Shown: positions 6,838-25,500, numbered from the stretch's first letter. The stretch: 64,000 bases of DNA from a virus (IMGVR_UViG_3300028584_000450:95394-159393); one strand, 5' to 3'. The notes: generated from the sequence alone by a model not told the origin. Numbers and translations are program-made.

Positions 6838-8978
6838 TAAAATTGGCCTCCATTAGCATCTTGCGGATCCGCAGTTGCTTGAGCTGCTAAAAATAATTTA
6901 TATTCTTTAGCTTCTTTAGTAAATTCAGCCCAATCGATTGTTGGGAGATATCGTTTAAGAAAATAATAGGGATCGAAATCCATACTTGCTGTTTGAAACC
7001 CTTGTTGAATATTCATGATAGATCCCATAATTTGTTCAAGCATTTGCAATATCAATACTACTGGGGGCTTTAATGATAGTTGCGCATATTTTGATGGGAT
7101 TTTTTTAAGTCCAAGAGTACTTGCAATTTTATCGGATAATTCATTCATTCCAAGTGTAAGTGTATGTTGAATTGAAACAATTTCAGTGGCAAATACAATA
7201 TTACTATGTACTAATTGTTCTCTGAGTTCTACAACATCTGCATATCCTAAATATGGAGCTGGAACACCTGAAAGTGCGATTAATTCTCGTCTACTATCTT
7301 CAAGATCTGCAATTTTAATATTTGCATCTCCTAAAGCTTGTAATTCAACATCAACAAATTTTTGTCCTTTTTTAGAAATCATAACAATATCTCTAAAATC
7401 AGATAAAACTTTCGGTACACTTTTAAAAGATACTAAATCCTCAACAGTGGTTTTTTGATTACGAAGCTCTCTCTTTAATTTCTGAACTAAATTACTATGA
7501 TGTTCTCTGGCACCTGTCTCTACAGTCCACTTACGAACTACAGATGCTCTTGATAATTTTGTTACAACATTTGCTAATTGTGATAATAAATATAATTTTC
7601 CAGGGTACACAAGAGGATCAATTATCGAACTTCCATATGGAAAAAAATCTACAGGATTGTGTCGAATCTGAATCATCCTAGATTTTGAAATGAATCTTAC
7701 AGATAATTTATTTAATTTTGAGTTAGCTTTAGTTTTATAATTTGGATTTGACTGAATGAACAATTTCTTAGTTAAAAAAAATAAATCATCGCCTAACGTA
7801 TCATGTAATAATCTTTCATATTGAATTTCTTTACTTTGCTTTTGTTCTGGACTTAAATTATCATCATTAGCAGATACTGTAATTTTAGATTTTTTAATAA
7901 TGTCTTTAATCATACGATTAACTAATTTTTGAATGATTATTGAATTATCTTGTTTTTTAGATGATAAATTTGTTAATTGCCCAACAACTTGTGCAAATTG
8001 ATTGCCTATAGATGATGTGTTTGTTACTTTAGAATGTTCCATGATTTCAACATATCCAAGCTCAGTATTATCATCTGTTAGCAATACACTAATATTATCT
8101 GGTTTATGGTACTTAAGATATATTCGATCTAATAATTTTTTGTTAAATGCTTTAGATGTGGTTTCAGTTTCAACACCTTCATATTTTGAAGTTTCATTTA
8201 TATATGCATCTCGAATACCTTGAAGTTCTGGAGAATTTGTAATAGTCAAATTATCATCAACTTCAATCAACATAGAATATAATTGATCAACACCACCATT
8301 TAAAATTTTTTCATATTCATCTACATTTGTTTTATTTAAATTAATTTTACGTTCAATTGATGATAACGATTCAATGACCAACCTATCTTCAGTGGCTGTT
8401 GATTTATTAATCTTAGGCAATGTTACTATATCATCTTGCAAATCTACAATTTCAATAAAATAATCGCCTTTTCGTATTACATTCTGAATTATGCTATTTT
8501 TTAAATTAGCTTCAAGATTGAATTTATCAATCACATCATTCTGATATGTTTTGAAATAATTGAAATCCTGAGAATTACCTTTTCCACTATCTGTAATTTT
8601 AGAATATAAATATTTCCCAGTTAAAACATCTTGTTGTAGACTGTTATTGATATATGTCTGGACAATTCGTTTAATTAATTGTACTGAATTATATAATTCT
8701 TCATATATCTTATATCTGCTTAATCTATTAGCAGCTACTGTGATTTGATCTAATAAATTTTGATATCCGGCATCTGGACCATCGGATGTCTTATCCTTAT
8801 CATTATGGTCCATAGATTGAATGAATTCATTTAAAGCAATATCAGTTAAATCAACTTCAACTTCAGATGATGGTTGAGTTTTAATACCTCCAATTAAAGT
8901 ATCTACTCTAGACATCATATTTGATAGATCAGTATCTCCAAATAATGAACCAAGATTAAATTTCTTTCCCACTTTCAA
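6837..8978 (-). CDS. Portal protein (T4 gp20-like)
   Basis: 713 aa, TTG start with AAGGAG RBS; 'PYGSSIIDP', 'KLSRASVVR', 'ALSGVPAPYL' motifs; upstream of protease and capsid. Confidence 0.8.
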   Translation of the reverse strand: MKVGKKFNLGSLFGDTDLSNMMSRVDTLIGGIKTQPSSEVEVDLTDIALNEFIQSMDHNDKDKTSDGPDAGYQNLLDQITVAANRLSRYKIYEELYNSVQLIKRIVQTYINNSLQQDVLTGKYLYSKITDSGKGNSQDFNYFKTYQNDVIDKFNLEANLKNSIIQNVIRKGDYFIEIVDLQDDIVTLPKINKSTATEDRLVIESLSSIERKINLNKTNVDEYEKILNGGVDQLYSMLIEVDDNLTITNSPELQGIRDAYINETSKYEGVETETTSKAFNKKLLDRIYLKYHKPDNISVLLTDDNTELGYVEIMEHSKVTNTSSIGNQFAQVVGQLTNLSSKKQDNSIIIQKLVNRMIKDIIKKSKITVSANDDNLSPEQKQSKEIQYERLLHDTLGDDLFFLTKKLFIQSNPNYKTKANSKLNKLSVRFISKSRMIQIRHNPVDFFPYGSSIIDPLVYPGKLYLLSQLANVVTKLSRASVVRKWTVETGAREHHSNLVQKLKRELRNQKTTVEDLVSFKSVPKVLSDFRDIVMISKKGQKFVDVELQALGDANIKIADLEDSRRELIALSGVPAPYLGYADVVELREQLVHSNIVFATEIVSIQHTLTLGMNELSDKIASTLGLKKIPSKYAQLSLKPPVVLILQMLEQIMGSIMNIQQGFQTASMDFDPYYFLKRYLPTIDWAEFTKEAKEYKLFLAAQATADPQDANGGQF

Positions 8979-9914: not shown

Positions 9915-12874
9915 TTAAATTAGATTAATATCAAATGATTTAGATTGATCTAATTGATTGCCACAATTTATACCAAGTAAATCAACGCTATTTTTTAATC
10001 TACTACTAGATTGTTTAAATCCATTAAGATCTGCAAAAAAGTCAGACAAACTTGAATATATTTTTAGATTGATTCCACTAAATAGGTGGAATTGAACAAC
10101 ATTTTTCTTTCCCTCTTTAGCCTTTGTTATCTTTATTTCAAATGGAACAATATGCTGTATAAACATTCCAGACATATCTGTTAATGATAAATTTTTATCA
10201 AGTTCATCATTTCTGCAAACATCATTCCTTACTTGAGCTGACAATAAATCCAATTCAGATCTCATTCGGATCATATAAATATAATCGCTATATCGAACTT
10301 TCTTATAACTATCTCCAATGAGATCATTGGACATCGCAATAGATGCATTCTCAGAAGTTCTTGTATTTTGTGTAATTGATATTATTGGAATTGAATATAT
10401 TCTAGATGCCAACCGTAATTCTTGAATGATTACACCATGAGAATCATAATCATTATAGTTGGTATATTTAGAGTCCGATGGAACCATACGTTGTATTCAA
10501 TAAGGATCGCAAATCCTTATTCGCATATAATATCTATGCAGCTGCATATTTCTATGCAGACTAGACTATCTCTTCAACCTTTTTATCATAATACCTCCTA
10601 ATAGGTATTGAAGTTATAGGAGTTAGATAATTAATTAGGTAATTATCAAGGTGATCAACCGTGTCCTCCTAATTTACATGATAAAAATAGGTTGCCTCGC
10701 GCTTCCACTCGCTTGAGTGTACTCTACTCCCTTCCGTTATTCCTAACGTGGTTTCGATAGTCGTTGCACCTTCCCCATAGCGTTGGGGCTTGGCTCAGGA
10801 TTACCATATTCTTTCGAACTTAGGCTTCCCCTGAATTCACGAGGTATTTTCAATAATATTACTATTATTGGGCGCTTAATTACAAACGTCTATATAATCC
10901 ACCATAAGGCACTTAACATTATGCCCTTCAAGTTTGAGAATATCAATGAATTTAGTTGCATCGCTTGGTGAGAATGAGTTTTCATTACAATGTTTAATAA
11001 TGACTTTACATCTATTATTTGTTGTATGAATAATACATTCATTTATTAATTGTGATAATAACTTAGTAACTTCTGTCATCAATGATGTTGTGTTTGAATT
11101 TAATGATTCTTGAGTTCTAACCAATGTACTTACTTTAATGAACAATCGTCGTATTTCTGTAGAATCTATATTTCCAAAAATAGACATAAATCGTCTTAAT
11201 AGTTTATAAGCATCCGTAACTTCAATAAGGATCGTTACCCCTTACCCGCAGCATTATCTGCAGCTATATGTTTCCATATAGACGAGACCATATCATTACC
11301 CTAACATAATTAGATTGGATCTTTAATTAGACCTAATTCTGCTTTCAACTTTATTGAAAACCGCATAATAACCTCCGTATAAGTATATTGGGAGTGAGAT
11401 AAGTAATACGGTACTTATCGAAGCTGGCCAGCTTTTGTCCTCCCGAAATATAGACATCATTATGCTAGGGTACTTCCCGTTTCCACTTCACTTGAAGTGT
11501 ACTCCTCTGACGAGGATGGTCGTTGCACCTTCCTTATAAGAATAAGGCTTGGATCAGGATTGCCATAGGATTTCTCCCTTAGGTTTCCCTGAGTTAAAGA
11601 AGTGTTTCAATTATTATTACTAATAAAGGGGACAATATTTTATCCTCAAGAGTTATAAATACAAGTGTATCTTGTGGACCTATCATTGTCGGGTTATTGA
11701 CAATGATATTTCTTAGCATATTTATCATGAAAATGGATTTTGCATGATTTGATGGACCTGTAATTAAATGAAATGTTGAACTCTCTAATCCACCAATTGC
11801 ATTATCAATTAATGGATATCCACTTTTATAAAATGCATATCCTGAACTTAAAAATGATACTAAATTATTAACAACTTTTCCAACTGTACTTGGATCTGCT
11901 AATACCATATAATCTTCAAGTTGTTCACTTTTAGTTATCGTAGTTAAACTTGAAAGTTCATTATATGCAGTAGCAATTATATCTTTATACACTTTCACCA
12001 TATTTAATACAGAAGAATCAATAGACTCCGAAGATGACATTAGATTCTGCAATGCAATTAAAGTTGGTTTAATATTATCAACTTCATTATATGTTTGTAT
12101 TATATGGATGATTGTATCGAACTCACTTCGAAATCGATCAATGCTTGTTATTCGATCATTACTAACATTCTTCAATAATTTTTCAGTGTATAAATCTCGT
12201 TTTGGAAAATGTTGAAGTACATTATCATATGTTACTAATCGACTAGTTATATCTTCTCTTAATTCTAATATTTGATATGCAAGTCTAGTTGATGATTGAA
12301 GTGTAGTTTTCGGTACTTTTGTAAATTGACTATTAGGTGCTTTTCTAATATCTTTTTGAACATCATTTAAAAATTTACGAATGAATTTAACGACATCTGC
12401 AGATTTAGTAGAACTTGTTGAAAAATCAGCTTGATATAATGTTGTGTTAATTATAGATGATATAAATGATTCACTAACAAATCCAGAAAGGAATGTTGAT
12501 AAAAGTTTATCATCTGAAGGTTGAATTTGATTTTGTTGCGATGTTAATTGTAATTTTGTAGGATCAATTATTTTAGGTTGAGTTGGAATAGACATCACAC
12601 TAGACATCGGAGGTATTGCAGATTTATCTGGAATTTTTTTATTATCTGAAACTAAATCATGATTAATTACAATTGGTTGTTGTTCTATTATTAATGGTTC
12701 GGATGAACTTCCAATATCAGCAAGTGTATTTGGATCAATTATAGATACTTGTTGTTCTTGATTTATTGGAACGGTAGACGTGGGTGAATTAACAATTGGA
12801 GTCAAATTTGGTGGTTGAGGAACCTGTATTAATTGTACTGTATTGATACCATTAATGATATTGTTTTGTGGCAT
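9915..12874 (-). CDS. dnaB: DnaB-like replicative helicase, three exons: join(11642..12874, 10886..11214, 9915..10488), 711 aa spliced
   Basis: Walker A-like GPSNHAKS. Splicing restores FITLED|DAYKLLRRF and Walker B VDYIDV|MVPS. Motif 'ISITQNTR'. Exon sum 2136 nt is in frame. Confidence 0.88.
10489..10885 (-). mobile_element. Group I intron (IA-like) 2 of dnaB, no endonuclease
   Basis: P (GAATTCAGGGGAA), Q (AATCCTGAG), R (GTGCAACGACTA), S (AAGAGATAGTCT) elements; U-G 5' splice site; terminal G at 10489. Confidence 0.88.
11215..11641 (-). mobile_element. Group I intron (IA-like) 1 of dnaB, no endonuclease
   Basis: P1 GGAU/GUCC with U-G pair; AACTCAGGGAAA, AATCCTGAT, GTGCAACGACCA, ATGATATGGTCT core; terminal G at 11215. 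Confidence 0.88.
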
Positions 12875-12925
12875 AAATTCTCCATATAGTTAATAAAAAA
12901 TATTCATTATTTCATTCTTATAATC

Positions 12926-12939
12926 ATTAATATCTATAT
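12926..12939 (-). promoter_or_regulatory. Candidate phage promoter motif ATATAGATATTAAT
   Basis: Exact or near copies at 37075-37088(-), 54156-54169(+), 61508-61521(+), 55472-55483(-), all intergenic and facing a gene start. Confidence 0.55.
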
Positions 12940-12946
12940 CACTTTG

Positions 12947-14626
12947 TTATAATGAATAAGCAGTGAGAATTCCCTCTAAATATTTTGTAATCATAGTGGA
13001 CTTAAATATATTATCTAAAACAATTTCAGAAACCGCACCATTTACATGATTCGAAGAAACTTGTAACAGCTCATCATCCGTTACCTCAAATTTATTATCC
13101 CCCACATATAAATTAAATTGTTGGTTTAAGTCATCAATATGTACGTTGAATAATTTTCCATTTAAAATGTCTTTCATAATTATTAAGATTAAATATGATC
13201 TGATATGATCTACATGTTTAAATATGTCCGTTTTCATTAGATAATTATCATTAACGGCAAAATTCAATATGGGTAATATATCATCGATTATCCAAGCTGT
13301 AACTGCTTTATCATTGAAAAATTCTAAAAGCATTTTCTGATAATATATAAATGCCGTTAATTTTAATAAATCTTCATTATGTGTAATTGGATGATCTATT
13401 ATCCATTGTTTAATGAATTGTGGATTTGTTATTGACATTTTAGACATATACTCATCAATATTAAATCCATTTCCAAATTCATGAACTAATTCTTTAGAAT
13501 ACCACTTATGAGATAATACATATGAATTAATAAAGAATAATGGAGTTTGACTAAATTGAAATGATATTTGTTCTAATGTAGTTAATTTAGGAGATTGTTC
13601 CGTTAAATATGATATTAGATTAGATATGATTAATTCTTCTTGCTGTATATACCATCCAGTTTGATTATCAGCATAATATTCACCTAACTTTGAATACAAT
13701 CCATTATGTAATAAATCACCTGCATATATATATGAATTATGGTTAAAGTAATCAAACAATATCTGTGTATTGATATCTAATGAATTGCTTGTGGAATGAT
13801 ATGTTAATATTATATCTTTTAATTTTAGTATACTTACACGAAGACTAGATAATGTATATTCAGTTAAATGAGAAGATATATTACCACCCATTTGAAATAT
13901 ATTAACTAAACTAAATTTAATAATATCATCCGTTATTTCATTTAAATTATCACTAATATAACTTTCAAATTGAATTGCTAAACTTTCTTTATTGATAGAA
14001 TCGATTGTAGGTAATATATTATTCATAGTTGAATAATACGAAGATCCAAATATACTCAATTTAGACACAACATTTAACATATGATAAAATGGATAAACTG
14101 CAACTTCAGAAAAATTTAGAGTTGTAGGAAATGAATCTTGATTAATCATATATCCAAAACATTCAGAACTATCAGTAAAATAATCAATTGATATTAAATA
14201 TGAAGATTTCAGTTCTGTATATAAATGTTGTAGTGCTTGAAAGTATTGTAAATTCGGACCTAATAGGTTATATGTTTGGAATATTTGAATATATATCTGA
14301 TCTTGTTCTGGAGGCAAATCTGATAATAATTTAATAATATCTGAAATATCACAACATGTTATAATTTTAACTGGACTGAATCCAACTTTACATGCAATTC
14401 CATTTACAATTTCTTTTTTACTAAGAGATGTGAAAATTTTTTGATTTTTCAATGGTACATTATATAATCGTTCTTTAAAATCTAAATTTTCAGTTGGTAA
14501 TAATGTTTGGCCGTTCTGTAACGATGAATATAAATATTGAATTGATTCCGCCATTGTATTAAATTTATATGTTGGATTTTGGGTAGTATTTAAGTATTTT
14601 GAAAAATATTCTGCGAAATAAGTCAT
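12947..14626 (-). CDS. Hypothetical protein (559 aa)
   Basis: Long ORF abutting the gp48-like gene. Confidence 0.7.
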   Translation of the reverse strand: MTYFAEYFSKYLNTTQNPTYKFNTMAESIQYLYSSLQNGQTLLPTENLDFKERLYNVPLKNQKIFTSLSKKEIVNGIACKVGFSPVKIITCCDISDIIKLLSDLPPEQDQIYIQIFQTYNLLGPNLQYFQALQHLYTELKSSYLISIDYFTDSSECFGYMINQDSFPTTLNFSEVAVYPFYHMLNVVSKLSIFGSSYYSTMNNILPTIDSINKESLAIQFESYISDNLNEITDDIIKFSLVNIFQMGGNISSHLTEYTLSSLRVSILKLKDIILTYHSTSNSLDINTQILFDYFNHNSYIYAGDLLHNGLYSKLGEYYADNQTGWYIQQEELIISNLISYLTEQSPKLTTLEQISFQFSQTPLFFINSYVLSHKWYSKELVHEFGNGFNIDEYMSKMSITNPQFIKQWIIDHPITHNEDLLKLTAFIYYQKMLLEFFNDKAVTAWIIDDILPILNFAVNDNYLMKTDIFKHVDHIRSYLILIIMKDILNGKLFNVHIDDLNQQFNLYVGDNKFEVTDDELLQVSSNHVNGAVSEIVLDNIFKSTMITKYLEGILTAYSL

Positions 14627-15814
14627 TTACTTTGTCTCCCCTGAAAGATTACTAAGACCTCTAGTAACATTCTCAATTAATAATGAACTGTGAGTTGTTC
14701 CTAGAACCAACTTTTCACTAACATCATTTGCCATAACAACACTGATTGGAGCTGGTCTAAGAGATTGAATAATATTACCAATTGTAGTTATTGTAGGTGA
14801 TTCGGTTATATAGTCCTCAGAAAATGGTTTTGTTGCATCATCCATAGTGGCAATATCTTTAAATTTTGGAACACATGCGGCAAATCCAGCAGCTAATGGA
14901 CGTATTGTTATGTTTATATCTAATATTAATGGTTGTTTATAAATATTATATGCAGTTTCTCGACCTCCACGCCGAACATTAATTCCTTCAATATATCCTA
15001 AATTGATATTTGAAGTTCCATATCCATGTATACGTAATGGTCGTGGTAATCCATAAGACATACCATCATTTGTCGTTGGAGATCCTAATAATAATAAATA
15101 TATTAATTGTTCTGTAATATAATATTTTACAGATTCTGGATCACCATATGGGCTAACTAATTTAACAGCTAATGTCAATGATGGATTATATGAAGATGAT
15201 GTCCATATTTTAGGTAGACTGATTTTTTTCCCTTGAAAAATCATTTCAGCGGCAGTTCCAATAACAGCATTTCCAGCATCCTGAACTGCTTGTTTAACTG
15301 CTCCATCTCCAATAAAATTCATTGCACCATTAAATGTATCTTGAGCCACCCCTTTAGTAAAATCGGAAGTTGCTGTTATGACATTCTGTCCATTCGATCC
15401 AACACTTTTACCTAAACTAGTTGCACTTTTTATACTTCTAATGATATTACTCATGCCTTCTAAACTAGATAGCCCAGTTTCAATTACGTTTGGAGAGTAA
15501 TCATTACTAAAATTATCATTAGCTACAGAATCATCAGTCAGCCATAATCTTAATCCAAGTGCTGGAGTTGATAAGTTATATGCGGCACATAAGTTTTTAT
15601 AATCTTCAGTTGCACTTGAAAAATCATAACTTATTGCCCATCCATTCTTATTTATTTTAGATAGATCTAAATTATAATCACACGGAAGTAAATCAGTTAC
15701 AGATAAATGAGAACGGATATGTTTTGTTGTTCGGCCATCTAAATCTATCTCTGGTCTTAATTTTATAAGGTTTCCAATATCTTTTAAAGTATTAGAAGTT
15801 TTAAAGTTATCCAT
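14627..15814 (-). CDS. Tail tube initiator/baseplate protein (gp48/gp54-like)
   Basis: Follows tape measure; 'LPKIWTSSSY...SPYG...P..LRIHGYG...GYIEGINVRRGG' pattern. Confidence 0.55.
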   Translation of the reverse strand: MDNFKTSNTLKDIGNLIKLRPEIDLDGRTTKHIRSHLSVTDLLPCDYNLDLSKINKNGWAISYDFSSATEDYKNLCAAYNLSTPALGLRLWLTDDSVANDNFSNDYSPNVIETGLSSLEGMSNIIRSIKSATSLGKSVGSNGQNVITATSDFTKGVAQDTFNGAMNFIGDGAVKQAVQDAGNAVIGTAAEMIFQGKKISLPKIWTSSSYNPSLTLAVKLVSPYGDPESVKYYITEQLIYLLLLGSPTTNDGMSYGLPRPLRIHGYGTSNINLGYIEGINVRRGGRETAYNIYKQPLILDINITIRPLAAGFAACVPKFKDIATMDDATKPFSEDYITESPTITTIGNIIQSLRPAPISVVMANDVSEKLVLGTTHSSLLIENVTRGLSNLSGETK

Positions 15815-15828
15815 ATATCTCCTTATTC

Positions 15829-15865
15829 AATATTGAGGGTGTTAATAATATACACCCTCAATATT
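15829..15865. other. 14-bp perfect stem-loop between tape measure stop and next RBS
   Basis: AATATTGAGGGTGT / ACACCCTCAATATT. Confidence 0.8.
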
Positions 15866-15872
15866 AAAATAA

Positions 15873-18800
15873 TTACCTTAAAATTTGAAATGGACTCTGT
15901 CCCATTGCAAATGATGTGATTCCAGATTCAATACTAATGATTGTATTCTTAAATATACTATCTATCATATTTTCTGCAAATCCATTAATGGATCTCAAAT
16001 TATGGGTATTAACAGTACCTTGATCAACTCCAGGAGATGAAAATGCTGGTGGAGGAGCTTGTGGAGGAATATTAACTTGAGCTTGTTTCCTTAAATCCAT
16101 CTTTCCAGTAATAGTTTCCTCATACTTAGGAACATGTACAGCATTAGTCATTTCAACCGGATCAATTTTACCAACTGTTGATTGAGAATCTATATTCATA
16201 TTTACATTTCGAAGTTTTGCAATTTCATCAGAAAATGTATATATTGCAGTTGATAATCGTCCAATAACAATATTAGAATTTTCTTGAGAATATGAATTTT
16301 GTTCAATAACACGGGATTGATTATGCTCTGTAAAACTTTTCTGAAGTAAATCTCCAAAAATATTTTGGAATTGAGAACTATCTAATGGGACTATGGCTTC
16401 ATTAGGATGGATTTCTGCAGGAATACTATCATAATCTCCATCAAACATATGTCGTCTATTAATTGGATATGGTTTATAATAAGCTCCAGTTCGGGCATGT
16501 ACAATATATTTCGGATCACCAGTAAGCATTTGCTTTGCAATTGTACGGGCTCTATTTTTAGTCGGTCCACGTCCATAATCACTATTTAATATTTCAGCAG
16601 CAGCATATTTCCAATTCTTTTCCCTAATTCCTTTTCGCATTTCTTTAAATCCACGAACACCACCACCACCCATATTAAATACCATATCAATTAATGCACC
16701 CTGTCTAACACCATCCCCTTCAAGCATGTTAAATTCTTCAATTCTTCTTGCTTCATTAACTGCAGTTTGGAAATCTTTTGCAAATAATACATCTATTTGA
16801 TCTTGACTAATGGGTTCTTTAAAATGCTCTCCTTTTAAAATAAAATGCCCAACCCCGATTGATCTTCCATTTGCATCTGGATAAGACGTGGCCCAATTAC
16901 CTTCATGACTTCGAATTTGAGATTTAAATGCTTGTTCAAGATTGGGACCAAGTGGAGTTTGTATTGCATATGAAGTTTCTCCACCAAGGGATTCTTTAAT
17001 TGCATTTATTGGAGTTGAATTTGAAATTGCTTGAGCTGGCGCCGAATTAACAATTGCTTGAGCTGTGTCTGAGTTTGCAATTTTTGTTCCTATAGATTTT
17101 GCGGTATCTACTGTAGATTTAATTATTGGAGATTTATATGCTTCTTCAGCTCGGGATTTTAGTTTCTCTATAAATGGAAGGGCTTTCCATTCTTCAGAAT
17201 TTCGATCAATAGGTAATTTCTTTGGAGGCTTTCCTAATTCAGGTGGAGTTGGAGTCATTGTTTCTTCTTTAAATTCTCCAAGAACTCCTTTATAATCTGA
17301 TTTTGCTTTTTCTGAAGGAACTTTCGTCTCATTTGGAGTTACCCATAAATCTAATGTTTTATCAAGTACAATTTTATTCGCTTTTTTCAGTTCTGTAAAT
17401 TTTCCAAAATCATTTCCAATTAAAATCTGAACGTCTTTACTGCATACTTTTTTTAGTGCTTCTAAAGAATCTTTACCTTGTTGTTCAAGTTCAGGACTAA
17501 CAACTCCAGTCTTTTTTGCTAATTGAATATCATGATATATTAACCAACCTTCAATAGCAACTTGTGCTGCTATTGATGCAACTGAACCAAGCCCAAGAGT
17601 AAAGATTGGAACAAGACTCAATGCTCCAGATGCAAATTCAGCAGATGCTCCTGTATAGTCTCCATGCAATACGCGTTTAATTGCTAATCCAGTACCAACA
17701 CCAACTCCAATTCCTGGAATTAATTTAGCTCCAACTTTACCAGTACCTTTAACTGTAGCTTTAATTACATTTCCACTTCCAGGTATTATACCTCCAACGG
17801 ATTTAGCAGCATCTATTGCAAATTTACCAACTCCAGATGATTTAATAGCGGTTGTCGCTTTACCTCCATATTCAAGTGCAGTTTCTCCAATAGAAGTTGC
17901 AATTTTACCAACTTTAGTATTTTTAGCCGCAGCGACACCAGCAATAGTAGCTTTACCAACTGTGCTATTTTTTACTAATCCAGTTCCAGATTCTATAATT
18001 CCTTTTGCAAATGGAATTACTTTTTTACCAATAGCTGCCCCGAATGGAAGTGCTTTTTTAGCTATAGAACTTCCAATTCCAGCTGCTTTTTCGCTAAGAA
18101 ATTTACCAGTTCCTCCACTAAGACGTCCGAGAATTCCTGAGATTCCAGATGTTATTGGTTTTAATAATCGGCTCAATCCATTTAATATTGAAGATCCAAC
18201 TTTAAGATCAGCGCTCATTGGAGATGATTTACTTTTTATAAATGCAGCAGCGAGTGCAGCTGTAATAGATGTTGTCAGTGCTGGTACAAGAGCCCCTGTA
18301 ATAGCCGCTAATGCACCTCCACTTAATAACGATTTAAGCAATCCTCCACCTGAAAATAATCCAGCTAATCCACTAAAAACATCTTTATTTTGTAAACTGC
18401 GTTCTGCAATTAATTTTAATTGTTCATATGCATCTGATAATCGAGTATCTAAATCGCCTGTAAATGATTCAAATGATTTATGATATGTTAAAGTAGAATC
18501 AATTTCTTGAACCTCTTTATTTTCACGTTGAGTATCTTTAAGTTCACGCAATTCATTAGTTACAGATGAATGTCCGAGTCCAGTTGTTGGTTTAGATACT
18601 ACTTCACCATCATGTAAATGATATACTGCACCTTTTTTAGGAGTGATGACTTCTCGAGAATCTCCAGGTTTTAATGAATCTAATCTATTAATACCACGTT
18701 TAAATTCAGTAGAATCCCAGTCTTCTTCTTTATGTAATTTATGAAATCGAAATCGTTGTTTATTTAATTTCAATTTTCGTAATTTAAATCTTTCCAGATC

Positions 18801-21800
18801 TTCAATCTTAGATTGGTTATTTTGACCAACCATATCTGGAGCATCTTGTTTTATATTTGGGAGTTGTAATAATTTTGCTCGAGTAGGTTTTGGATCATTT
18901 GGATCATCTAACTTGGATGATGTTTGAATATTTTGTCCAATAAGATCTATAGGATCTTGATTTATCGGGATTTGTGATAGTTTTATACCATTAGATTTCG
19001 GGTCTTTCGGATCATCACTTGTTTGAGATGACAAATTTGATATAAGTTTTGGTATAATTGAAACAATATTGAGTATTGACTTAATGTCATTTTGATTGGA
19101 ATTATAATCATCTGGAGTTTTAGGCATTCGAGTTATAATGGGAGGAGGTGTATTGATAATGTCAGAAACATAATCATCTGGAGTTTTAGGCATTCGAGTT
19201 ATAATGGGAGGAGGTGTATTGATAATATCGGAATTATAATCATCTGGAGTTTTAGATTTAGATGCCAATCTTGAAATTACTGGAGATGGATTAATAATAT
19301 CGGAAGTATAATCATCTGAAACATTAACATCTTTTGGTATTGATATTTTATTTGAATTAGAAAGTTTAATTAATTCAGCTAATTGAGCTTCATTTCTAAT
19401 TTTAAATAAATCCAATGTAATGTTATTTTTCTTAACAATTCCAATTAAATCAATAATATTGTCTTGTGGTGTTGGTGGATTTAATTGATCTTCACCAAGA
19501 TCTGGAGTTGGATTTTTAATATTATCTAATTTATTAGCAATTATATCCAGTTGAGTTTCATTTTTACTTCTGAATAAATCCAATGTAGTTTGATTACTAA
19601 TATTATCTAATTTATTAGCAATTATATCCAGTTGAGTTTCATTTTTACTTCTGAATAAATCCAATGTAGTTTGATTACTAATATTATCTAATTTATTAGC
19701 AATTATATCCAGTTGAGTTTCATTTTTACTTCTGAATAAATCCAAAGTTTGAATTGTTGATTTTTTAAATTTTCTAATTTCTCGTATTAGTTTTTGTGCA
19801 ATACGATCTGGTGATAATCCAGTTGATGAAGATTGGTTTTGTTTAATATTAATTGGTGCTACTAATTTAGCTTTTTCATTTTCTCCAAAAATTTCTTCAG
19901 CAGTTTTAATATTCCCAATTTTATATGGATCATCAAACACCCCAGACTGTCGGGATGTTCTAGTAGTTCTAAAATCAACAATGCCTTTTCCAAGTCCAGA
20001 TAAAATACTTTTTCCAATATTACCTAATCGTCGTGATGGGTTCCGTTCACTATCATTTAGTGTAGCAAGCTCATCTCTAAATCCACGAAGTCCCCCAGAA
20101 ATGCCAGATATGACTTCTTTAGTTGGTGTTAATTTTTGAATTTTTGAAACTAATTTTAATCGTCTTCCATATGTGCTGTCTAGCATCTTATTTTGTTCTG
20201 CTGTATATTTTGCTTTACGAAGCTCTTGCAGTTTATCATAACTTTTCTGATTATAATATTCTCCAGATATATCATCGTAAATTTTTCTAGAAGCACTTTC
20301 AGCAGTAGATGTTACAGTTCCACCTTTAATTCGAACTAACTCTTGAATATTTTTATCAATAGATGTAAGTAAATTAACTTCTTCTAAATTAGCTGTAGAT
20401 ATTTCATCTAATTTATTAGGCAATCCAATAGTAAAGAATAAATCTTTCTTTTCATCAATAGATTTAATTAATCCAAGTTTCTTCTTTAATATATTTGGAT
20501 CTTTTTTATGTTCAGTTAATTCATCTCCAAGAACAAATCGCTTTGCTGAAGTTATTGCTTTATTAGTTAGACTCTTAATTGGATCCGTTATTGTCTTTAT
20601 AGGACTCCACATAAACTTAGCTGTGGCTTGAAGCCCCTCAAGTGCTTGTCCAAGAATTGGAATGTTTTTCCAAAATCCAAAATCTTTTGGAGAAAATATA
20701 GGTTCACTAATATCTGTATTTTCGGATTTTTCAACACCTTGCTTAAACTGGTATCTTAACAAATCAAAAATTCCAGATTGCAATGTTATCATTTTTGCTT
20801 CTGGAGATTCACTACCACCAAGTAATGTATATGATGGTGTTGTTAATAATTTCAAATGAGGTAAAGATAATCCAGTTTCTCTTGATAATTTTTGTAATCG
20901 TTGAGGTCTATTATATTCAAGTTTTCGATTAAATGCCATCTCATCTACTTCATTTATGACAGTTCCACGACCTTTGCCTTCTAATATTAAAGTCATTAAC
21001 TGTTGGATTGGAAATCTAGCGAGAAGTTGTTGCAATCCAATTACTGAACGATCAAATCCATATGATGAGACTTTTGCAGTTTTTTGAAATATACCAGGAT
21101 CTTCATTTGCTTCAATTTTATCACGATTAATTGTGTGTCGATATTCATCTGTACTAGCATTTACATCTTTAGTTCGTTGATCTTCTGTATATTTAGTAGC
21201 ACTCGCAATTATACTAATTGGGGATGTATGACTTTCAATCATCTTAAGTAATTCAATTTTAATCTGATCTGCTGCACTTAATTCATTGGCAGAAGTCAAT
21301 TGACTAATTATAGAAGATAATCCTCTAGATCTACTAGTTTTCTTTTCAAGTGAAGAAGTAGATTCTTTTCCACCTCTTATTTTTTTACGCTTATTATCAG
21401 CTTTAGCATTTAATATTGCTCCAGCTATTGATGGTAATGCCAGGGTTAGAGCTCCAGCAATTACAGGAGCAGTTACTCCTGCAGCCAATCCAGTTGCTCC
21501 AACACCATTAAGTGCAGTTGCTCCAATTTTTCCAGTGAGCCCCTTAGTAACTCCCATCAATGCTGCTGCTTTTCCACTCATGGCCATCCCAGGAAGTTGG
21601 CTCATCCCAAATCCAAGAGTACCTGTAGTGGCTAACGCCGCCATTTTAACTGAATTTAATCCATTCATTAAAGATGCCGCTTTCCCAGTTGCTCCAAGTT
21701 GCTCTTTTTGCTGAATTTGAGTTTTTGCTCGTCTAGCATTTAGAGCCATTCTATTTCCTAGAGATGCGGCAGCCATCATTGGCATTGCAGTTCCAAGAGT

Positions 21801-22514
21801 AGCTGTTACTGGTGCTGCTACATTTAATCCACTTTGAACTGCACTTCCTAAAAGACCTCCTCCGAGTCTTTCTGTTATACCAAATTCTCTAAAATGGGCC
21901 CATTGTTCAGGAGACATATGTCGTCTACCATAAAACATATCGGATGCTGTTGATTTAAATCCCGGGTCAAATGCAGTATATTTATTTTGTGGAGATGAAT
22001 GAGAAGAACTAACTCTACCCATATATCTTCTAGCCTGCTCAATATTTGAAAATTCAGAATCTAACTTCACATCAGTGGCACGGGTATTAAAATCTTTCCA
22101 TTTAGCAGCATATCGTGCTTGACGATCTAGAGTTGCTTGTGGATTATAATACGAACTGTAATATGGTATATTTGCAATTCCAGCATATGTTGTTGCTTTA
22201 CTTATTTTCCTAGATCTTGAATTTGCAGTTTCAATTTCTTTTTGACCATCTAATGAATTTTGAAGGTGAAGATCTTGTGCATTTCTATTTTCTCTATTTT
22301 GTCGAGCCTCTCTATTTTGTTGTAACCTTTCATCCTCTTTTAAAGTTTGCAAAGCTTGTGCTGTTTGTTCTCTTACTAATAATGATATTTCAGCATGTTG
22401 TTGTTTTTGATTATATTCTGGAAATTGCATTTGATTATTATATGGTTGTGGAATTGGACCATATCGTAATTGTTGTGCTGGTATATGATTTTGATTTTGA
22501 TTATTTGGTTGCAT
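15873..22514 (-). CDS. Tape measure protein with C-terminal T4-lysozyme-like (GH24) domain
   Basis: 2213 aa, Ala/Gly-rich helical segments; 'IRSHEG...YPDANGRSIGVGH...ALIDMVFNMG...NRA' lysozyme motif. Confidence 0.8.
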   Translation of the reverse strand: MQPNNQNQNHIPAQQLRYGPIPQPYNNQMQFPEYNQKQQHAEISLLVREQTAQALQTLKEDERLQQNREARQNRENRNAQDLHLQNSLDGQKEIETANSRSRKISKATTYAGIANIPYYSSYYNPQATLDRQARYAAKWKDFNTRATDVKLDSEFSNIEQARRYMGRVSSSHSSPQNKYTAFDPGFKSTASDMFYGRRHMSPEQWAHFREFGITERLGGGLLGSAVQSGLNVAAPVTATLGTAMPMMAAASLGNRMALNARRAKTQIQQKEQLGATGKAASLMNGLNSVKMAALATTGTLGFGMSQLPGMAMSGKAAALMGVTKGLTGKIGATALNGVGATGLAAGVTAPVIAGALTLALPSIAGAILNAKADNKRKKIRGGKESTSSLEKKTSRSRGLSSIISQLTSANELSAADQIKIELLKMIESHTSPISIIASATKYTEDQRTKDVNASTDEYRHTINRDKIEANEDPGIFQKTAKVSSYGFDRSVIGLQQLLARFPIQQLMTLILEGKGRGTVINEVDEMAFNRKLEYNRPQRLQKLSRETGLSLPHLKLLTTPSYTLLGGSESPEAKMITLQSGIFDLLRYQFKQGVEKSENTDISEPIFSPKDFGFWKNIPILGQALEGLQATAKFMWSPIKTITDPIKSLTNKAITSAKRFVLGDELTEHKKDPNILKKKLGLIKSIDEKKDLFFTIGLPNKLDEISTANLEEVNLLTSIDKNIQELVRIKGGTVTSTAESASRKIYDDISGEYYNQKSYDKLQELRKAKYTAEQNKMLDSTYGRRLKLVSKIQKLTPTKEVISGISGGLRGFRDELATLNDSERNPSRRLGNIGKSILSGLGKGIVDFRTTRTSRQSGVFDDPYKIGNIKTAEEIFGENEKAKLVAPINIKQNQSSSTGLSPDRIAQKLIREIRKFKKSTIQTLDLFRSKNETQLDIIANKLDNISNQTTLDLFRSKNETQLDIIANKLDNISNQTTLDLFRSKNETQLDIIANKLDNIKNPTPDLGEDQLNPPTPQDNIIDLIGIVKKNNITLDLFKIRNEAQLAELIKLSNSNKISIPKDVNVSDDYTSDIINPSPVISRLASKSKTPDDYNSDIINTPPPIITRMPKTPDDYVSDIINTPPPIITRMPKTPDDYNSNQNDIKSILNIVSIIPKLISNLSSQTSDDPKDPKSNGIKLSQIPINQDPIDLIGQNIQTSSKLDDPNDPKPTRAKLLQLPNIKQDAPDMVGQNNQSKIEDLERFKLRKLKLNKQRFRFHKLHKEEDWDSTEFKRGINRLDSLKPGDSREVITPKKGAVYHLHDGEVVSKPTTGLGHSSVTNELRELKDTQRENKEVQEIDSTLTYHKSFESFTGDLDTRLSDAYEQLKLIAERSLQNKDVFSGLAGLFSGGGLLKSLLSGGALAAITGALVPALTTSITAALAAAFIKSKSSPMSADLKVGSSILNGLSRLLKPITSGISGILGRLSGGTGKFLSEKAAGIGSSIAKKALPFGAAIGKKVIPFAKGIIESGTGLVKNSTVGKATIAGVAAAKNTKVGKIATSIGETALEYGGKATTAIKSSGVGKFAIDAAKSVGGIIPGSGNVIKATVKGTGKVGAKLIPGIGVGVGTGLAIKRVLHGDYTGASAEFASGALSLVPIFTLGLGSVASIAAQVAIEGWLIYHDIQLAKKTGVVSPELEQQGKDSLEALKKVCSKDVQILIGNDFGKFTELKKANKIVLDKTLDLWVTPNETKVPSEKAKSDYKGVLGEFKEETMTPTPPELGKPPKKLPIDRNSEEWKALPFIEKLKSRAEEAYKSPIIKSTVDTAKSIGTKIANSDTAQAIVNSAPAQAISNSTPINAIKESLGGETSYAIQTPLGPNLEQAFKSQIRSHEGNWATSYPDANGRSIGVGHFILKGEHFKEPISQDQIDVLFAKDFQTAVNEARRIEEFNMLEGDGVRQGALIDMVFNMGGGGVRGFKEMRKGIREKNWKYAAAEILNSDYGRGPTKNRARTIAKQMLTGDPKYIVHARTGAYYKPYPINRRHMFDGDYDSIPAEIHPNEAIVPLDSSQFQNIFGDLLQKSFTEHNQSRVIEQNSYSQENSNIVIGRLSTAIYTFSDEIAKLRNVNMNIDSQSTVGKIDPVEMTNAVHVPKYEETITGKMDLRKQAQVNIPPQAPPPAFSSPGVDQGTVNTHNLRSINGFAENMIDSIFKNTIISIESGITSFAMGQSPFQILR
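19105..19320 (-). repeat. In-frame 66-bp tandem repeat (TPDDYxSDIINTPPPIITRMPK)
   Basis: Units start at 19105, 19171, 19237; degenerate unit near 19309. Confidence 0.9.
19518..19745 (-). repeat. In-frame 81-bp tandem repeat x3 (LDLFRSKNETQLDIIANKLDNISNQTT)
   Basis: Near-identical DNA units at 19518, 19599, 19680. Confidence 0.9.
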
Positions 22515-22529
22515 TATTAATTCCTCATA

Positions 22530-25500
22530 TTAAAAAAATATTGGTAAATCTGAAGAATGTATTGTTTCAGAATCTTCATCTGTGATATATTCGAATCCAC
22601 CTTCATCTTCATTATACACCATATTTGATGAAATGGTTTTTAAATCTTTTATTCCTAAAATTGATGATTTTTCATTTTGTTGAAATTGGGTCTGAAATAT
22701 ACTAGAACTCAATAATGGTTGTATTTCTAATATCGATAATCGTTTTATATATGCACATAATGCACTAGCCATGAATAAATCATCATGTTTACCAGATTGT
22801 GCTGAAACAGTTCCATTATATTTCCGTTCAATTAAATGTAATTGAGCTATTAAATCATTACTTTTAATTAATTCTGGATCTTGAATTAAATTATCATATA
22901 AACAAGAAACCATAGTCCCTTTATTTTGTGCATTTGTATTAATACCAGATTGACTTTCAATTCTCTGTTTATGTACAATTCGACCTTTTTCAGACTTCAT
23001 TACACTTTTTGTTGGGGTGTATACAAAATCCATATATCCAAACCCATCATCTGCATTTTCTAAATTTTCAATAATTGCAGCTCCAATAGAATTGTTCTCA
23101 ATACAAAGTATAACTCTATCATTCATTATGCTACATAAATGTCTAGTTAAATACATTAACACTTCACTGTATTTTTTTAGTGATCCAAGTTTACCGAAAT
23201 ATTCTCCAACTTGAATAAAATTAGCATATGAAAATATTTCAATAGCATTATAATCTCCAATTAATGATTTTGCACTATCTACACCAACTAATAGAAAATC
23301 TCCAACATCAAATTGTTCGGTATAGAAATTTAATCTAGTTGCATGTGGCATTTTTAAATGACCAGTACTTTTTATTGGTTTTAATTTTGCCAAAAAATCA
23401 TCATCAAAAATACAATTTGTCGAACCTACAAATTTAAGATCTAGCTCTTGATTGATTTTACGACTATCAAAGTTTAGATCTCGACATTGAGTTCTATACC
23501 AAGCTTCATCTTTTTCTGGATCTTCACTCCAATGATATCTAATATTAGCAAATCCATTTCGTTCTGGATTATCAATTATTTCAGCACCATCATCTGTAAT
23601 TTGATCTACATCATCAAATAATTCCTCTCCTGGAACTGCAAATTGGTGCATATCATAAAACCATTCCGTTATATTCAATAAGGATCGCGACTCCCTTACC
23701 CGCAATATTCTGCTGCTATATATTTCTATATAGACTAGACTATATCTTCATCCTTTTAAATTATTTAAATATGTTTCCAAAGTTTATTGCTTCTAATGTT
23801 ACTGATTGTAGATCTACTAACACCAAACATTTTTCCAAGTTCAACATTTGTATGATATGGTAATAGTTCTCTAATTTCATAAACATCCCGATCTAATAAT
23901 TTAGAATTTCCATTACTCTCACCAGGACGAGATAAATTAAGAATTTTAATACGAATCATTTTTAATGATTGTGGATCAATATGATTCAATCTACTTCCAT
24001 TTAAGATGCTTCTTAATCTTCGCTGAGAAATATTCCAATCATTAGAAATATCTGCTAAATCTATATATTTTCCAGATTCGATATTATTAATTATTTTTAA
24101 AACATCACCATCTGAAAGAATGCAATTTGGATTTGATGATCCGGTTAATGACCGATTTTTTAATACCATATCTTTAGAATTCAGTTCAGCATCTCCAATA
24201 AAAAAATGATATGGATTTACACATATTGGATTATCACATGTATGACAAACATATTGCTCAGATGTGATAATACCATTAAAACACATATATGAAAATCTAT
24301 GCGCTCGAATATTATTTCCAAATATGTGAAATTGACCATATCCATCTGAAAATTTCCCATATAACCATTCCATGCATTCGTCAAAATTAACAGAACCATC
24401 TGGATTTCGGATAATATTAACTTTACTCCAAAATCTATCAATATCCTTTTGTGGATAATTTAGTACATTGTATTCCATAATTTTCTCCTGTTTCGAGAAA
24501 ACATATAAATGGTGGAGGTAAGAATAAATTAGAAACAGTAATTTATTCAAGATGATCAGTCCTGTCCCTCCATAATGAAACTTTAAAAGGATGTCTCGCG
24601 CTTCGGATCCGCTTAGATCCTACTCCCTTCCGGGATAGTCGTTGAACCTTCACCATATAAGATTGCGAATCTTACGTATGAGCTTGGCTGCTGATTGTCC
24701 AATTCAAGTAATTTTTGACTCTCACGCTTGCCGTTTCCAGCTACGTTGTAGTTTACTTGACTCTAAGGAGTTTCCAGCAATTCACGAGATTATTCGATAT
24801 ACATTACTGTATAAAGCGGCCATATTAAAAACCGTCACCAATACTACCGTTAGGTGTAGAGGTAATTAACGTAAAATAAGGATACATATTCTTCTCTGCT
24901 TGAACCCTTGCTCTAGACAATGTGGGTTGAGCACTCCCATAGGCTTCAGAGATATGTCGAATGAATGCCGCCTCATCAATATATAAAATTGCACTTGTTA
25001 ATGAACGCGCAAGAGTATCCGGGCTTGTTGTGGATGATGGGTAAAACACTTTCATTACAGCTCCATGTGTATATTCTAAAAATGTTTTTCTGTCACCTTT
25101 AAACTTTAATGGAGTTTGTAATTGTGGTGGTAAATGTTCATGTATAAATTTAACTTTATTCAAATTCTCGAATGCATAATCTTTAGTTGCATTTAGAATA
25201 ATAGCTCGTGCATTTGGATAGAAATTATTAGCCCACTCAAGAATACATGCAGCAATTGTTGATTTTCCCAATTGTCTACTTGCCATCAATATACATCTAT
25301 GGAATCGTATAACAGATCTTACCACTTGTTTAATTTTTCCATTCATTATACTTTTTTCATATTTAAGAATTCCTCCAATTTCTGGAATGAATACATAATT
25401 ATAAATAAAATAAAATGGATTGATTTTACATTTATACCATTCTAAAGATTGTTCTTGTGCAGTCCATTTACTGGCCACATTATGAATGTGTTTAACATCA

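Follow-up and report, generated by a model that had tools for sequence, protein, structure and literature searches.

Three group I introns of a phage, two in dnaB (dnaB-I1 and dnaB-I2) and one in terL, were found to carry a structured RNA leader of ~85-100 nucleotides (nt), which probably belongs to phage homing-endonuclease cassettes and represses translation in cis, a predicted kissing interaction between two of its loops (L3 and L4) locking the Shine-Dalgarno (SD) sequence of the gene behind it. The introns lie in a 64,000-nt stretch of DNA (IMGVR_UViG_3300028584_000450:95394-159393, hereafter the window), which comes from an IMG/VR phage record of 256,898 bp with a G+C content of about 30%. 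The leader was noticed there in a first-pass annotation made from the sequence alone, whose three sequences we recovered exactly as quoted, on the minus strand (Table 1), and whose placement of the element just 5' of the ribosome-binding site (RBS) of the intron open reading frame (ORF) we confirm. Few selfish genes are as common in phages as those of homing endonucleases; to our knowledge, how their expression is restrained has been worked out for only a handful of T4 genes, each having an ad hoc hairpin.

Read 5' to 3', the leader consists of a closing stem (P1), the linker GAC(A), hairpin 2 (P2), hairpin 3 (P3) and the linker UNA, and P3 displays L3, a loop of 6-7 nt that usually reads CCUNNNN. 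A few A-rich bases downstream there is a short hairpin, P4, that carries the SD: the first GG of the SD forms the 3' end of its loop, L4, and the rest (AGG or AGGU) makes up its 3' strand, with stems such as ACCU/AGGU, AAUACCU/AGGUAUU and UUUUCUC/GAGAAAA. L3 is exactly complementary to the 6-7 nt running up to and including the first GG, and the two loops covary, from CCGUAU/AUACGG in dnaB-I1 to CCUAAU/AUUAGG in dnaB-I2. Because L3 is the Watson-Crick complement of L4, the loops are expected to kiss, which would leave all SD bases paired; from sequence and folding models, the SD is thus predicted to be fully sequestered by the loop-loop kiss together with the local stem. Folded alone at minimum free energy (MFE), each window copy adopts the closing stem, a short hairpin 2 and a hairpin 3 of 8-10 bp (folding z-scores -2.3, -3.3 and -1.6), i.e. 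the three-way junction that had been drawn in the first-pass annotation. The GACA and UNA linkers, described there as conserved, do contain near-invariant junction nucleotides, but the last A of GACA pairs with the U of CUU, so that hairpins 2 and 3 abut.

Taken by themselves, the three window copies give moderate evidence. MAFFT misplaced hairpin 2 when applied to them, and a covariance model was instead seeded from one copy, to which the others were re-aligned; the model from dnaB-I1 alone retrieves dnaB-I2 with E=2.5e-8, and the terL copy with E=0.13 in the 64-kb window, level with a random match. The model built from all three copies (R2), run on phage and metagenome data, yielded a further copy, the fourth of this genome (G000:240545-240606, 36.7 bits, E=7.7e-6) and many homologs in unrelated contigs, with E down to 1e-12. 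The fourth copy also lies in P8 of a group I intron, directly before an HNH ORF; its hairpin 2 is GGUC-CUGCA-GACC, with the self-complementary CUGCAG, and its L3/L4 pair is CUUAUAU/AUAUAAG. Distant homologs of the HNH protein encoded in the terL intron provided the entry to the metagenome copies, and pattern scans, in which parts of P1 and of the junction were fixed while hairpin 2, L3 and L4 were left free, gave 29 viral and >120 metagenome loci, a contig often holding two or three copies. R2 confirmed 51 matches at E<0.01 in the first (viral) set, 46 of them distinct. Homologs are now known from uncultured phages (>100 distinct) and, in one case, from a cultured phage, Enterocloster phage CB457P1. 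The same pattern applied to 185,579 prokaryotic species genomes matched 29 times, with one short contig of a metagenome-assembled genome passing the model; the other 28 failed and are chance matches, so that the pattern by itself does not suffice to yield hits, and the leader is in essence an element of phages.

The same junction is the MFE fold in all 46 distinct copies, and in 42 of the 46 the full L3 (6-8 nt) has a perfect complement just 5' of the SD. The mean perfect match is 6.5 nt in cognate L3/L4 pairs vs 3.9 nt in non-cognate ones, and a complement of at least 5 nt between L3 and L4 is present in 105/105 aligned leaders. When the 46 copies are aligned by fitting to the model, 95.7% of cells pair (0/500 shuffles as high) and hairpin 3 shows double-sided changes in 8/8 pairs. 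In a plain MAFFT alignment made with no structure fitting (A7), the five helices pair in 91% of cells, vs 45-57% with partners slid by 1-3 columns, and double-sided changes are seen in 24 of the 29 pairs, including 6/7 kissing pairs; none of 500 shuffles reaches the observed values. The claim of a structured, covarying RNA is therefore borne out by double-sided changes across the helices in both the structure-fitted and the plain alignment. One sub-family (L312, L315-L318 and L320) has an identical hairpin 2 (GAGGGUAGCUCCC) and a hairpin 3 of only ~5 bp (UCCUG/CAGGA); complementarity between loop and SD is present in it by eye, e.g. CCUAUA with UAUAGG in L316, and these leaders, mis-folded by the MFE parser, stand outside the statistics.

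The leader is followed in every copy, within 22-36 nt, by a strong SD and a start codon. Among the distinct downstream ORFs of at least 100 amino acids (aa; n=71), 28 match NUMOD3, 21 HNH, 7 GIY-YIG, 2 HNH_3 and 3 zf-His_Me_endon, and a few match the DUF559, MTES_1575, NucS_C or UPF0102 nuclease folds. As these ORFs match unrelated nuclease families, the element is, by its associations in sequence, the leader of homing-endonuclease cassettes from unrelated catalytic families. Of the 83 downstream ORFs that are complete, 13 do not reach 60 codons and resemble the remnants in dnaB-I2 and dnaB-I1, where a strong SD and AUG are kept and followed by just 7 and 18 codons, respectively; in both introns the leader is intact beside the remnant, so that, as the first-pass annotation had it, the leader outlives loss of the endonuclease. 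A common type of leader-associated ORF ('MKICWDNLE...') is split in L132 (12020-12875, plus strand) into two overlapping 145-aa frames, the second of which matches the TnsA-like endonuclease N-terminal domain (PF08722, 2e-20); it may be a frameshifted or programmed-frameshift nuclease gene.

All four copies of this genome are intronic. The Rfam group I intron alignment puts the leaders of dnaB-I1 and dnaB-I2 in the P8 loop, and the terL leader follows in P8, as had been proposed. Elsewhere, a copy is found in a terL intron (L128, 40.5 bits), and a DnaB-like ATPase gene (L129/L130) has two introns, each bearing an HNH gene and a leader (59.3 and 55.5 bits). On the other hand, most copies are intergenic and precede free-standing endonuclease genes: those of L132 lie between complete genes, 4-11 nt downstream of the preceding stop codon, Rfam detects no group I intron in 17 viral contigs (134 kb) with ~25 copies, and intron-like upstream sequence is seen in only 9/97 metagenome copies. 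Because most copies precede endonuclease genes without introns, the coupling of endonuclease expression to splicing that had been suggested is not the general function of the leader. A relaxed regular expression, applied to the complete genome and to 116 viral loci that share the intron core, returned only the known copies, and a 'type B' pattern (GGAGGGACA...) had zero matches in viral contigs.

The CB457P1 copy (OP172753.1 at about 8649-8759) precedes an annotated 'intron-associated endonuclease 1' and was confirmed by reading and folding. Its P1 is AU-rich and 14 bp long, with L3 CUGCAA and L4 UUGCAG, and the copy was not detected by R2 because its P1 is unrelated in sequence. Its kissing site lies ~20 nt upstream of the AUG, further than usual, and the annotated start or the SD in use may therefore differ. 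In this region of the phage (L310:1139-1613, OP172753.1 about 8285-8759) a complete group I intron match (RF00028, 93.6 bits) ends ~30 nt before the leader. A tblastn search with one leader-associated endonuclease found zero homologs in cultured phages.

Upstream of many copies there is a motif reminiscent of the T4 late-promoter consensus, TATAAATA. Within 30 nt upstream of P1, [TCA]ATAAATA occurs in 29/96 copies vs 1.2 expected from its frequency in the same loci, and it mostly ends 5-6 nt before P1, i.e. outside the folded structure (L190-L309, L131-L160); the intron-borne copies of the window are without it. This suggests that many host phages use gp55-like late transcription and that the leader may be the extreme 5' end of a dedicated late mRNA. 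As the motif lies 5' of the whole leader, such a transcript, if the motif is used, would have P1 at its 5' end and include the inhibitory fold in full. A reading of TTGAT...TCTNAC as a sigma-70 promoter was dropped, because its spacing ranges from 16 to 21 nt and hairpin 3 covaries.

The middle loop, i.e. the apex of P2, had been given as always UGRYCA. This sequence is not kept in the fourth copy (CUGCAG) or in relatives with AGCU, GUAC, CCGG, CGCG, GACG or UUGC, but self-complementarity is indeed enriched. The 100 distinct leaders with a confirmed kiss comprise 41 distinct P2 hairpins with 24 distinct loops; a self-complementary tetranucleotide is present in 28 of the hairpins and in 16 of the loops, where 6.3 would be expected (maximum of 14 in 2000 shuffles), counts that are not independent events since the copies are related. 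The control loop, L3, is self-complementary in 4/64 cases vs 8.1 expected. At least seven P2 cores were found (GAUC, GGCC, AGCU, GUAC, UGCA/GUGCAC, CCGG and CGCG), the four copies of this genome having GAUC, GAUC, GGCC and UGCA, and GACG and UUGC are the commonest exceptions. The view that selection acts on self-complementarity of the apex, and not on a particular sequence, appears to hold up. GACG loops are able to self-kiss in the Moloney murine leukemia and sarcoma viruses (MoMuLV and MoMuSV), and GUGCAC is the palindrome of the dimerization initiation site (DIS) of HIV-1 (PMC7357161). RNAcofold favours a P2 duplex over two hairpins by 9-21 kcal/mol for five of six P2 hairpins, with a palindromic or UUGC apex, vs gains of 2.8 for hairpin 3 and 3.5 for a GACG example; the method favours duplexes for any hairpin, and these energies indicate only that a P2 dimer would be feasible. 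In dnaB-I2 no intramolecular partner for the P2 loop was seen elsewhere in the intron, the other introns not having been searched systematically. One stretch of hairpin 2 of dnaB-I2, GAUCACCU (window 10650-10657, minus strand), is identical over 8 nt to the 3' end of 16S rRNA, which we take to be GGAUCACCUCCUUA; it was set aside as a probable coincidence, because it is not conserved in leaders with other apexes.

Translational control, already envisaged in the first-pass annotation, is the most likely function of the leader, although neither the route via CUCC nor the link to the intron proposed there has stood. In the reading that we consider probable, the three-way junction would present L3, L3 would kiss L4 of the SD hairpin and, with all SD bases paired, binding of the 30S subunit would be blocked, so that a potentially harmful endonuclease would be translated very little or late. 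In the intron copies, repression might additionally keep ribosomes off the ribozyme core, an effect demonstrated by experiment for the simpler I-TevI hairpin of T4. More tentatively, the self-complementary P2 apex might let two leaders pair, by kissing or as an extended duplex, and could thereby gate or tune repression. Several observations weigh against this reading. The closest HNH homolog (L127, 55% identity) has no leader, which is therefore dispensable for at least some members of the family; the conservation of P1 and of the junction is overstated, because the search patterns fixed parts of both; and about a third of the P2 loops (UUGC, CUCAUUA and others) are not self-complementary. Full sequestration of the SD would leave it puzzling how the endonuclease is made at all, no alternative 'on' fold having been found by MFE modelling. 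The intact leader of the ORF-less dnaB introns could point to a second, ORF-independent role, or simply to recent deletion. The leaderless L127 locus has two group I intron matches nearly back to back (259-883; 259-552 and 614-883), and its HNH ORF begins right after P8.

Other explanations have to be weighed against repression by the kiss. The first-pass annotation took the CUCC strand of P1 for an anti-SD that would permit translation when paired with the GGAG upstream and stop it when paired with the real SD. In the window, where P1 is GGAG(G)/C(C)UCC, GGAG does occur both in the 5' strand (GGAGG) and in the SD, and CUCCUA of dnaB-I2 would be able to pair with UAGGAG in either place. However, P1 stays closed and the SD falls in a separate hairpin, P4, when the complete leader is folded at MFE, which gives no alternative fold; the alternative pairing amounts to merely 4 bp in dnaB-I1 and the terL copy, and the SD would already be wholly sequestered by L3-L4 and P4. 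Besides, P1 covaries freely when it is not fixed: AAGAG/CUCUU closes the junction in L128 and L135, and a P1-independent scan, anchored on the junction and hairpin 2, gave AAGACCA/UGGUCUU, UGCGG/CCGCA, UAUAGAAG/CUUCUAUA, GGAAG/CUUCC and UUGGG/CCCAA, to which the AU-rich stem of CB457P1 may be added. Since unrelated covarying stems appear once the pattern leaves P1 free, P1 is best read as a generic helix, and its SD-like sequence as a lineage trait in the window and partly an artefact of the search pattern in the larger sample; an anti-SD switch is very improbable. Still less probable is a role as a P8 extension that aids folding or splicing of the ribozyme, which is suggested by the intronic copies of this genome, two of them persisting without an ORF, and by those of L128 and L129. 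It is largely refuted by the distribution of the leader, i.e. by the intron-free contigs, the copies between complete genes and the rarity of intron-like upstream sequence described above, by the covariance model finding nothing credible in 841 kb of viral sequence from loci that share the intron core motif, and by the recA intron (with a GIY-YIG ORF), in which P8 runs directly into the SD and AUG; the absence of the leader there, reported together with a near-identical core by the first-pass annotation, was confirmed. A signal at the level of DNA, whether promoter, operator or palindromic site for a protein, might be suggested by hairpin 2, as DNA a near-perfect palindrome, by the T4-type late-promoter-like motif just upstream of many copies and by I-TevI, which binds an operator 5' of its own ORF (PMC2988022); yet compensatory changes in every helix and long-range pairing of two loops of one strand are expected for RNA and not for protein-binding DNA, the core of the palindrome varies among copies of one genome and the downstream endonuclease families differ, and we give this explanation hardly any credence.

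Two further explanations accept the structure and concern what might control it. The junction with its GACA and UNA strands might bind a small molecule, as in a riboswitch-type sensor, or serve as an operator for a phage or host protein, binding of which would stabilise or release the kiss. Near-invariant junction nucleotides beside covarying helices would fit such a site, and an SD-sequestering pseudoknot is a common expression platform of riboswitches. The genes downstream are, however, only selfish nucleases of unrelated families, with no metabolic logic and no protein domain common to all, MFE analysis gives no alternative fold and Rfam no riboswitch match even at permissive settings, which makes a sensor or operator distinctly unlikely. 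The P2 apex, on the other hand, invites a dimerisation-gated switch, in which leaders paired through P2 would remodel the junction and alter the L3-L4 kiss, so that translation would follow leader concentration, e.g. late in infection. It would account for the enrichment of self-complementary tetranucleotides in P2 and not in L3, for the variety of palindromic cores together with GACG loops known as self-kissers, for the fourth copy, which altered all four central bases and kept the palindrome, and for the larger duplex gains of P2. Against it, loops of 4-5 nt are short for stable kissing, about a third of the P2 loops are non-palindromic, no structural reason is known for P2 pairing to open the L3-L4 kiss, and the differing cores within one phage fit self-pairing but lack an obvious logic. 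We regard gating by dimerisation as rather unlikely, and as unlikely its more specific form, a concentration-sensing switch in which P2-apex pairing would reorganise the junction, release the L3-L4 kiss and free the SD. Were the latter true, endonucleases would be translated only with abundant transcripts late in infection, and a natural dimerisation-controlled translational switch would be common to many unrelated selfish nuclease genes.

Among known systems, the nearest are the RBS-sequestering hairpins of T-even endonuclease genes, where SD-sequestering structures control I-TevI, I-TevII, I-TevIII, segB and mobE (the last of phage Aeh1) (PMC2988022; Edgell, Gibb & Belfort 2010). Like them, the leader described here is a cis RNA structure that lies directly 5' of intron-borne and free-standing endonuclease genes, pairs the SD and is associated with late promoters, putative ones in its case, and the rationale, to limit a risky nuclease and to shield intron folding from ribosomes, would be the same; loss of the I-TevI hairpin impairs splicing (PMC2988022). 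The T-even structures, however, are simple local hairpins with no mutual sequence similarity, whereas this leader has a conserved three-way junction and a loop-loop kiss that a covariance model recognises across unrelated phages. In T4 I-TevI the inhibitory hairpin contains the late promoter, and late transcripts, being without the 5' half of the hairpin, escape repression (PMC2988022); here, copies that have the late-promoter-like motif have it 5-6 nt ahead of the entire leader. The self-complementary P2 apex has no T4 counterpart, and the closest known to it are palindromic kissing-loop dimerisation elements, i.e. HIV-1 DIS GUGCAC/GCGCGC, the GACG loops of MoMuLV and the ACGU palindrome of the hatchet ribozyme (PMC7357161). 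These share with P2 a self-complementary 4-6-mer in a loop that varies in sequence among relatives, and both GACG and GUGCAC occur in the leaders; P2 differs in that its dimer is a prediction, in its shorter loops (4-7 nt) and in belonging to an mRNA leader and not to a packaged genome, and the conserved purines that flank DIS are not seen, a 5' pyrimidine being usual. SD-sequestering riboswitches and pseudoknots (preQ1-II/III, SAM-II) likewise combine an upstream structured domain with long-range pairing to the SD region, but this leader has no ligand logic and no Rfam match, and its hypervariable partner loop is matched to the SD flank of each gene.

In agreement with the first-pass annotation, which recognised no known family, Rfam 15 has zero match to the leader: at the gathering score the window contains only RF00028 (the host introns), and the 134 kb of leader-bearing viral contigs contain nothing. 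Permissive Rfam scans of the leaders gave only noise (best, LasI_thermometer, 18.5 bits vs a cut-off of 76), and the int-alpA motif (RF02996) is matched neither in the window nor in five loci with leaders, whether the threshold is the gathering score or a permissive one. A hammerhead or other small-ribozyme junction was dropped because of unsuited junction strand lengths and zero Rfam match. Full-text search of the literature found no description of such a motif, and the text of a survey of 10,006 candidate viral structured RNAs (PMC10690425) mentions no endonuclease-associated one. Unmatched by Rfam 15 or by a searchable paper, the leader merits description as a family. It is a conserved, modular RNA that travels with genes of at least four unrelated catalytic nuclease families, into introns and intergenic sites, in many uncultured phages and at least one cultured phage, and it offers a general regulatory cassette for selfish nucleases; it also appears to be a clean natural case of a loop-loop kiss 're-programmed' for each gene and a candidate natural RNA dimerisation element. 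In annotation it could serve as a marker of homing-endonuclease cassettes and of their degraded remnants, such as the ORF-less dnaB introns.

Table 1. Leaders, SD hairpins, introns and the associated ORF in the window (positions counted from its first nucleotide)
Feature	Position	Strand	Details
dnaB-I2 leader, three-way junction	10617..10671	-	P1 10671-10666/10622-10617; linker GACA 10665-10662; linker UAA 10625-10623
dnaB-I2 hairpin 2	10660-10650	-	loop UGAUC
dnaB-I2 hairpin 3	10647-10626	-	L3 = CCUAAU, 10639-10634
dnaB-I2 SD hairpin P4	10587..10609	-	stem AAUACCU 10609-10603 / AGGUAUU 10596-10590
dnaB-I2 L4 AUUAGG	10602-10597	-	exact complement of L3; AUG 10589-10587 opens 7-codon remnant ORF
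dnaB-I1 leader, three-way junction	11390..11444	-	hairpin 2 AAGCU-GGCC-AGCUU; L3 CCGUAU 11411-11406
dnaB-I1 SD hairpin	11364..11384	-	stem ACUU 11384-11381 / AGGU 11374-11371
dnaB-I1 L4 AUACGG	11380-11375	-	exact complement of L3; AUG 11366-11364 opens 18-codon remnant ORF
terL intron leader, three-way junction	24513..24572	-	hairpin 2 loop CUGAUCA; hairpin 3 24548-24522; L3 CUGUUUC 24538-24532
terL intron SD hairpin	24476..24501	-	stem UUUUCUC 24501-24495 / GAGAAAA 24487-24481
terL L4 GAAACAG	24494-24488	-	exact complement of L3; AUG 24478-24476
Group I intron dnaB-I2	10542..10895	-	RF00028, 123 bits; leader in P8 loop
Group I intron dnaB-I1	11264..11651	-	RF00028, 101.6 bits; leader in P8 loop
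terL group I intron, 5' part	24538..24840	-	RF00028, 68.3 bits; then leader and ORF in P8
HNH-type homing endonuclease ORF, 237 aa, behind terL-intron leader	23765..24478	-	

Short upstream frames were also noticed in two of the leaders. In the terL intron (minus strand) the frame is open from UUG 24550, inside hairpin 3, and in frame with AUG 24478, and in the fourth copy (L008) an AUG 3 nt past GGAGGGAC opens a 26-codon frame that stops at the SD. A reading as upstream micro-ORFs was dropped, because the frames differ between copies; such frames are not conserved in the dnaB copies and are probably by-products of sequence similarity.

No close relatives of the phage came up among GenBank phages by megablast or tblastn, and queries with the HNH and TerL proteins against IMG/VR viral contigs retrieved zero related loci. 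Public sequencing runs, as listed, include no RNA run with this phage. The Rfam 15 scan matched four group I introns in the window (RF00028); in the whole record (G000) at least eight exceed the Rfam threshold, with four weaker matches in addition, and the leader is present in only four. A cluster of three or four introns lies within 2 kb of the same record, at G000:30746-32794.

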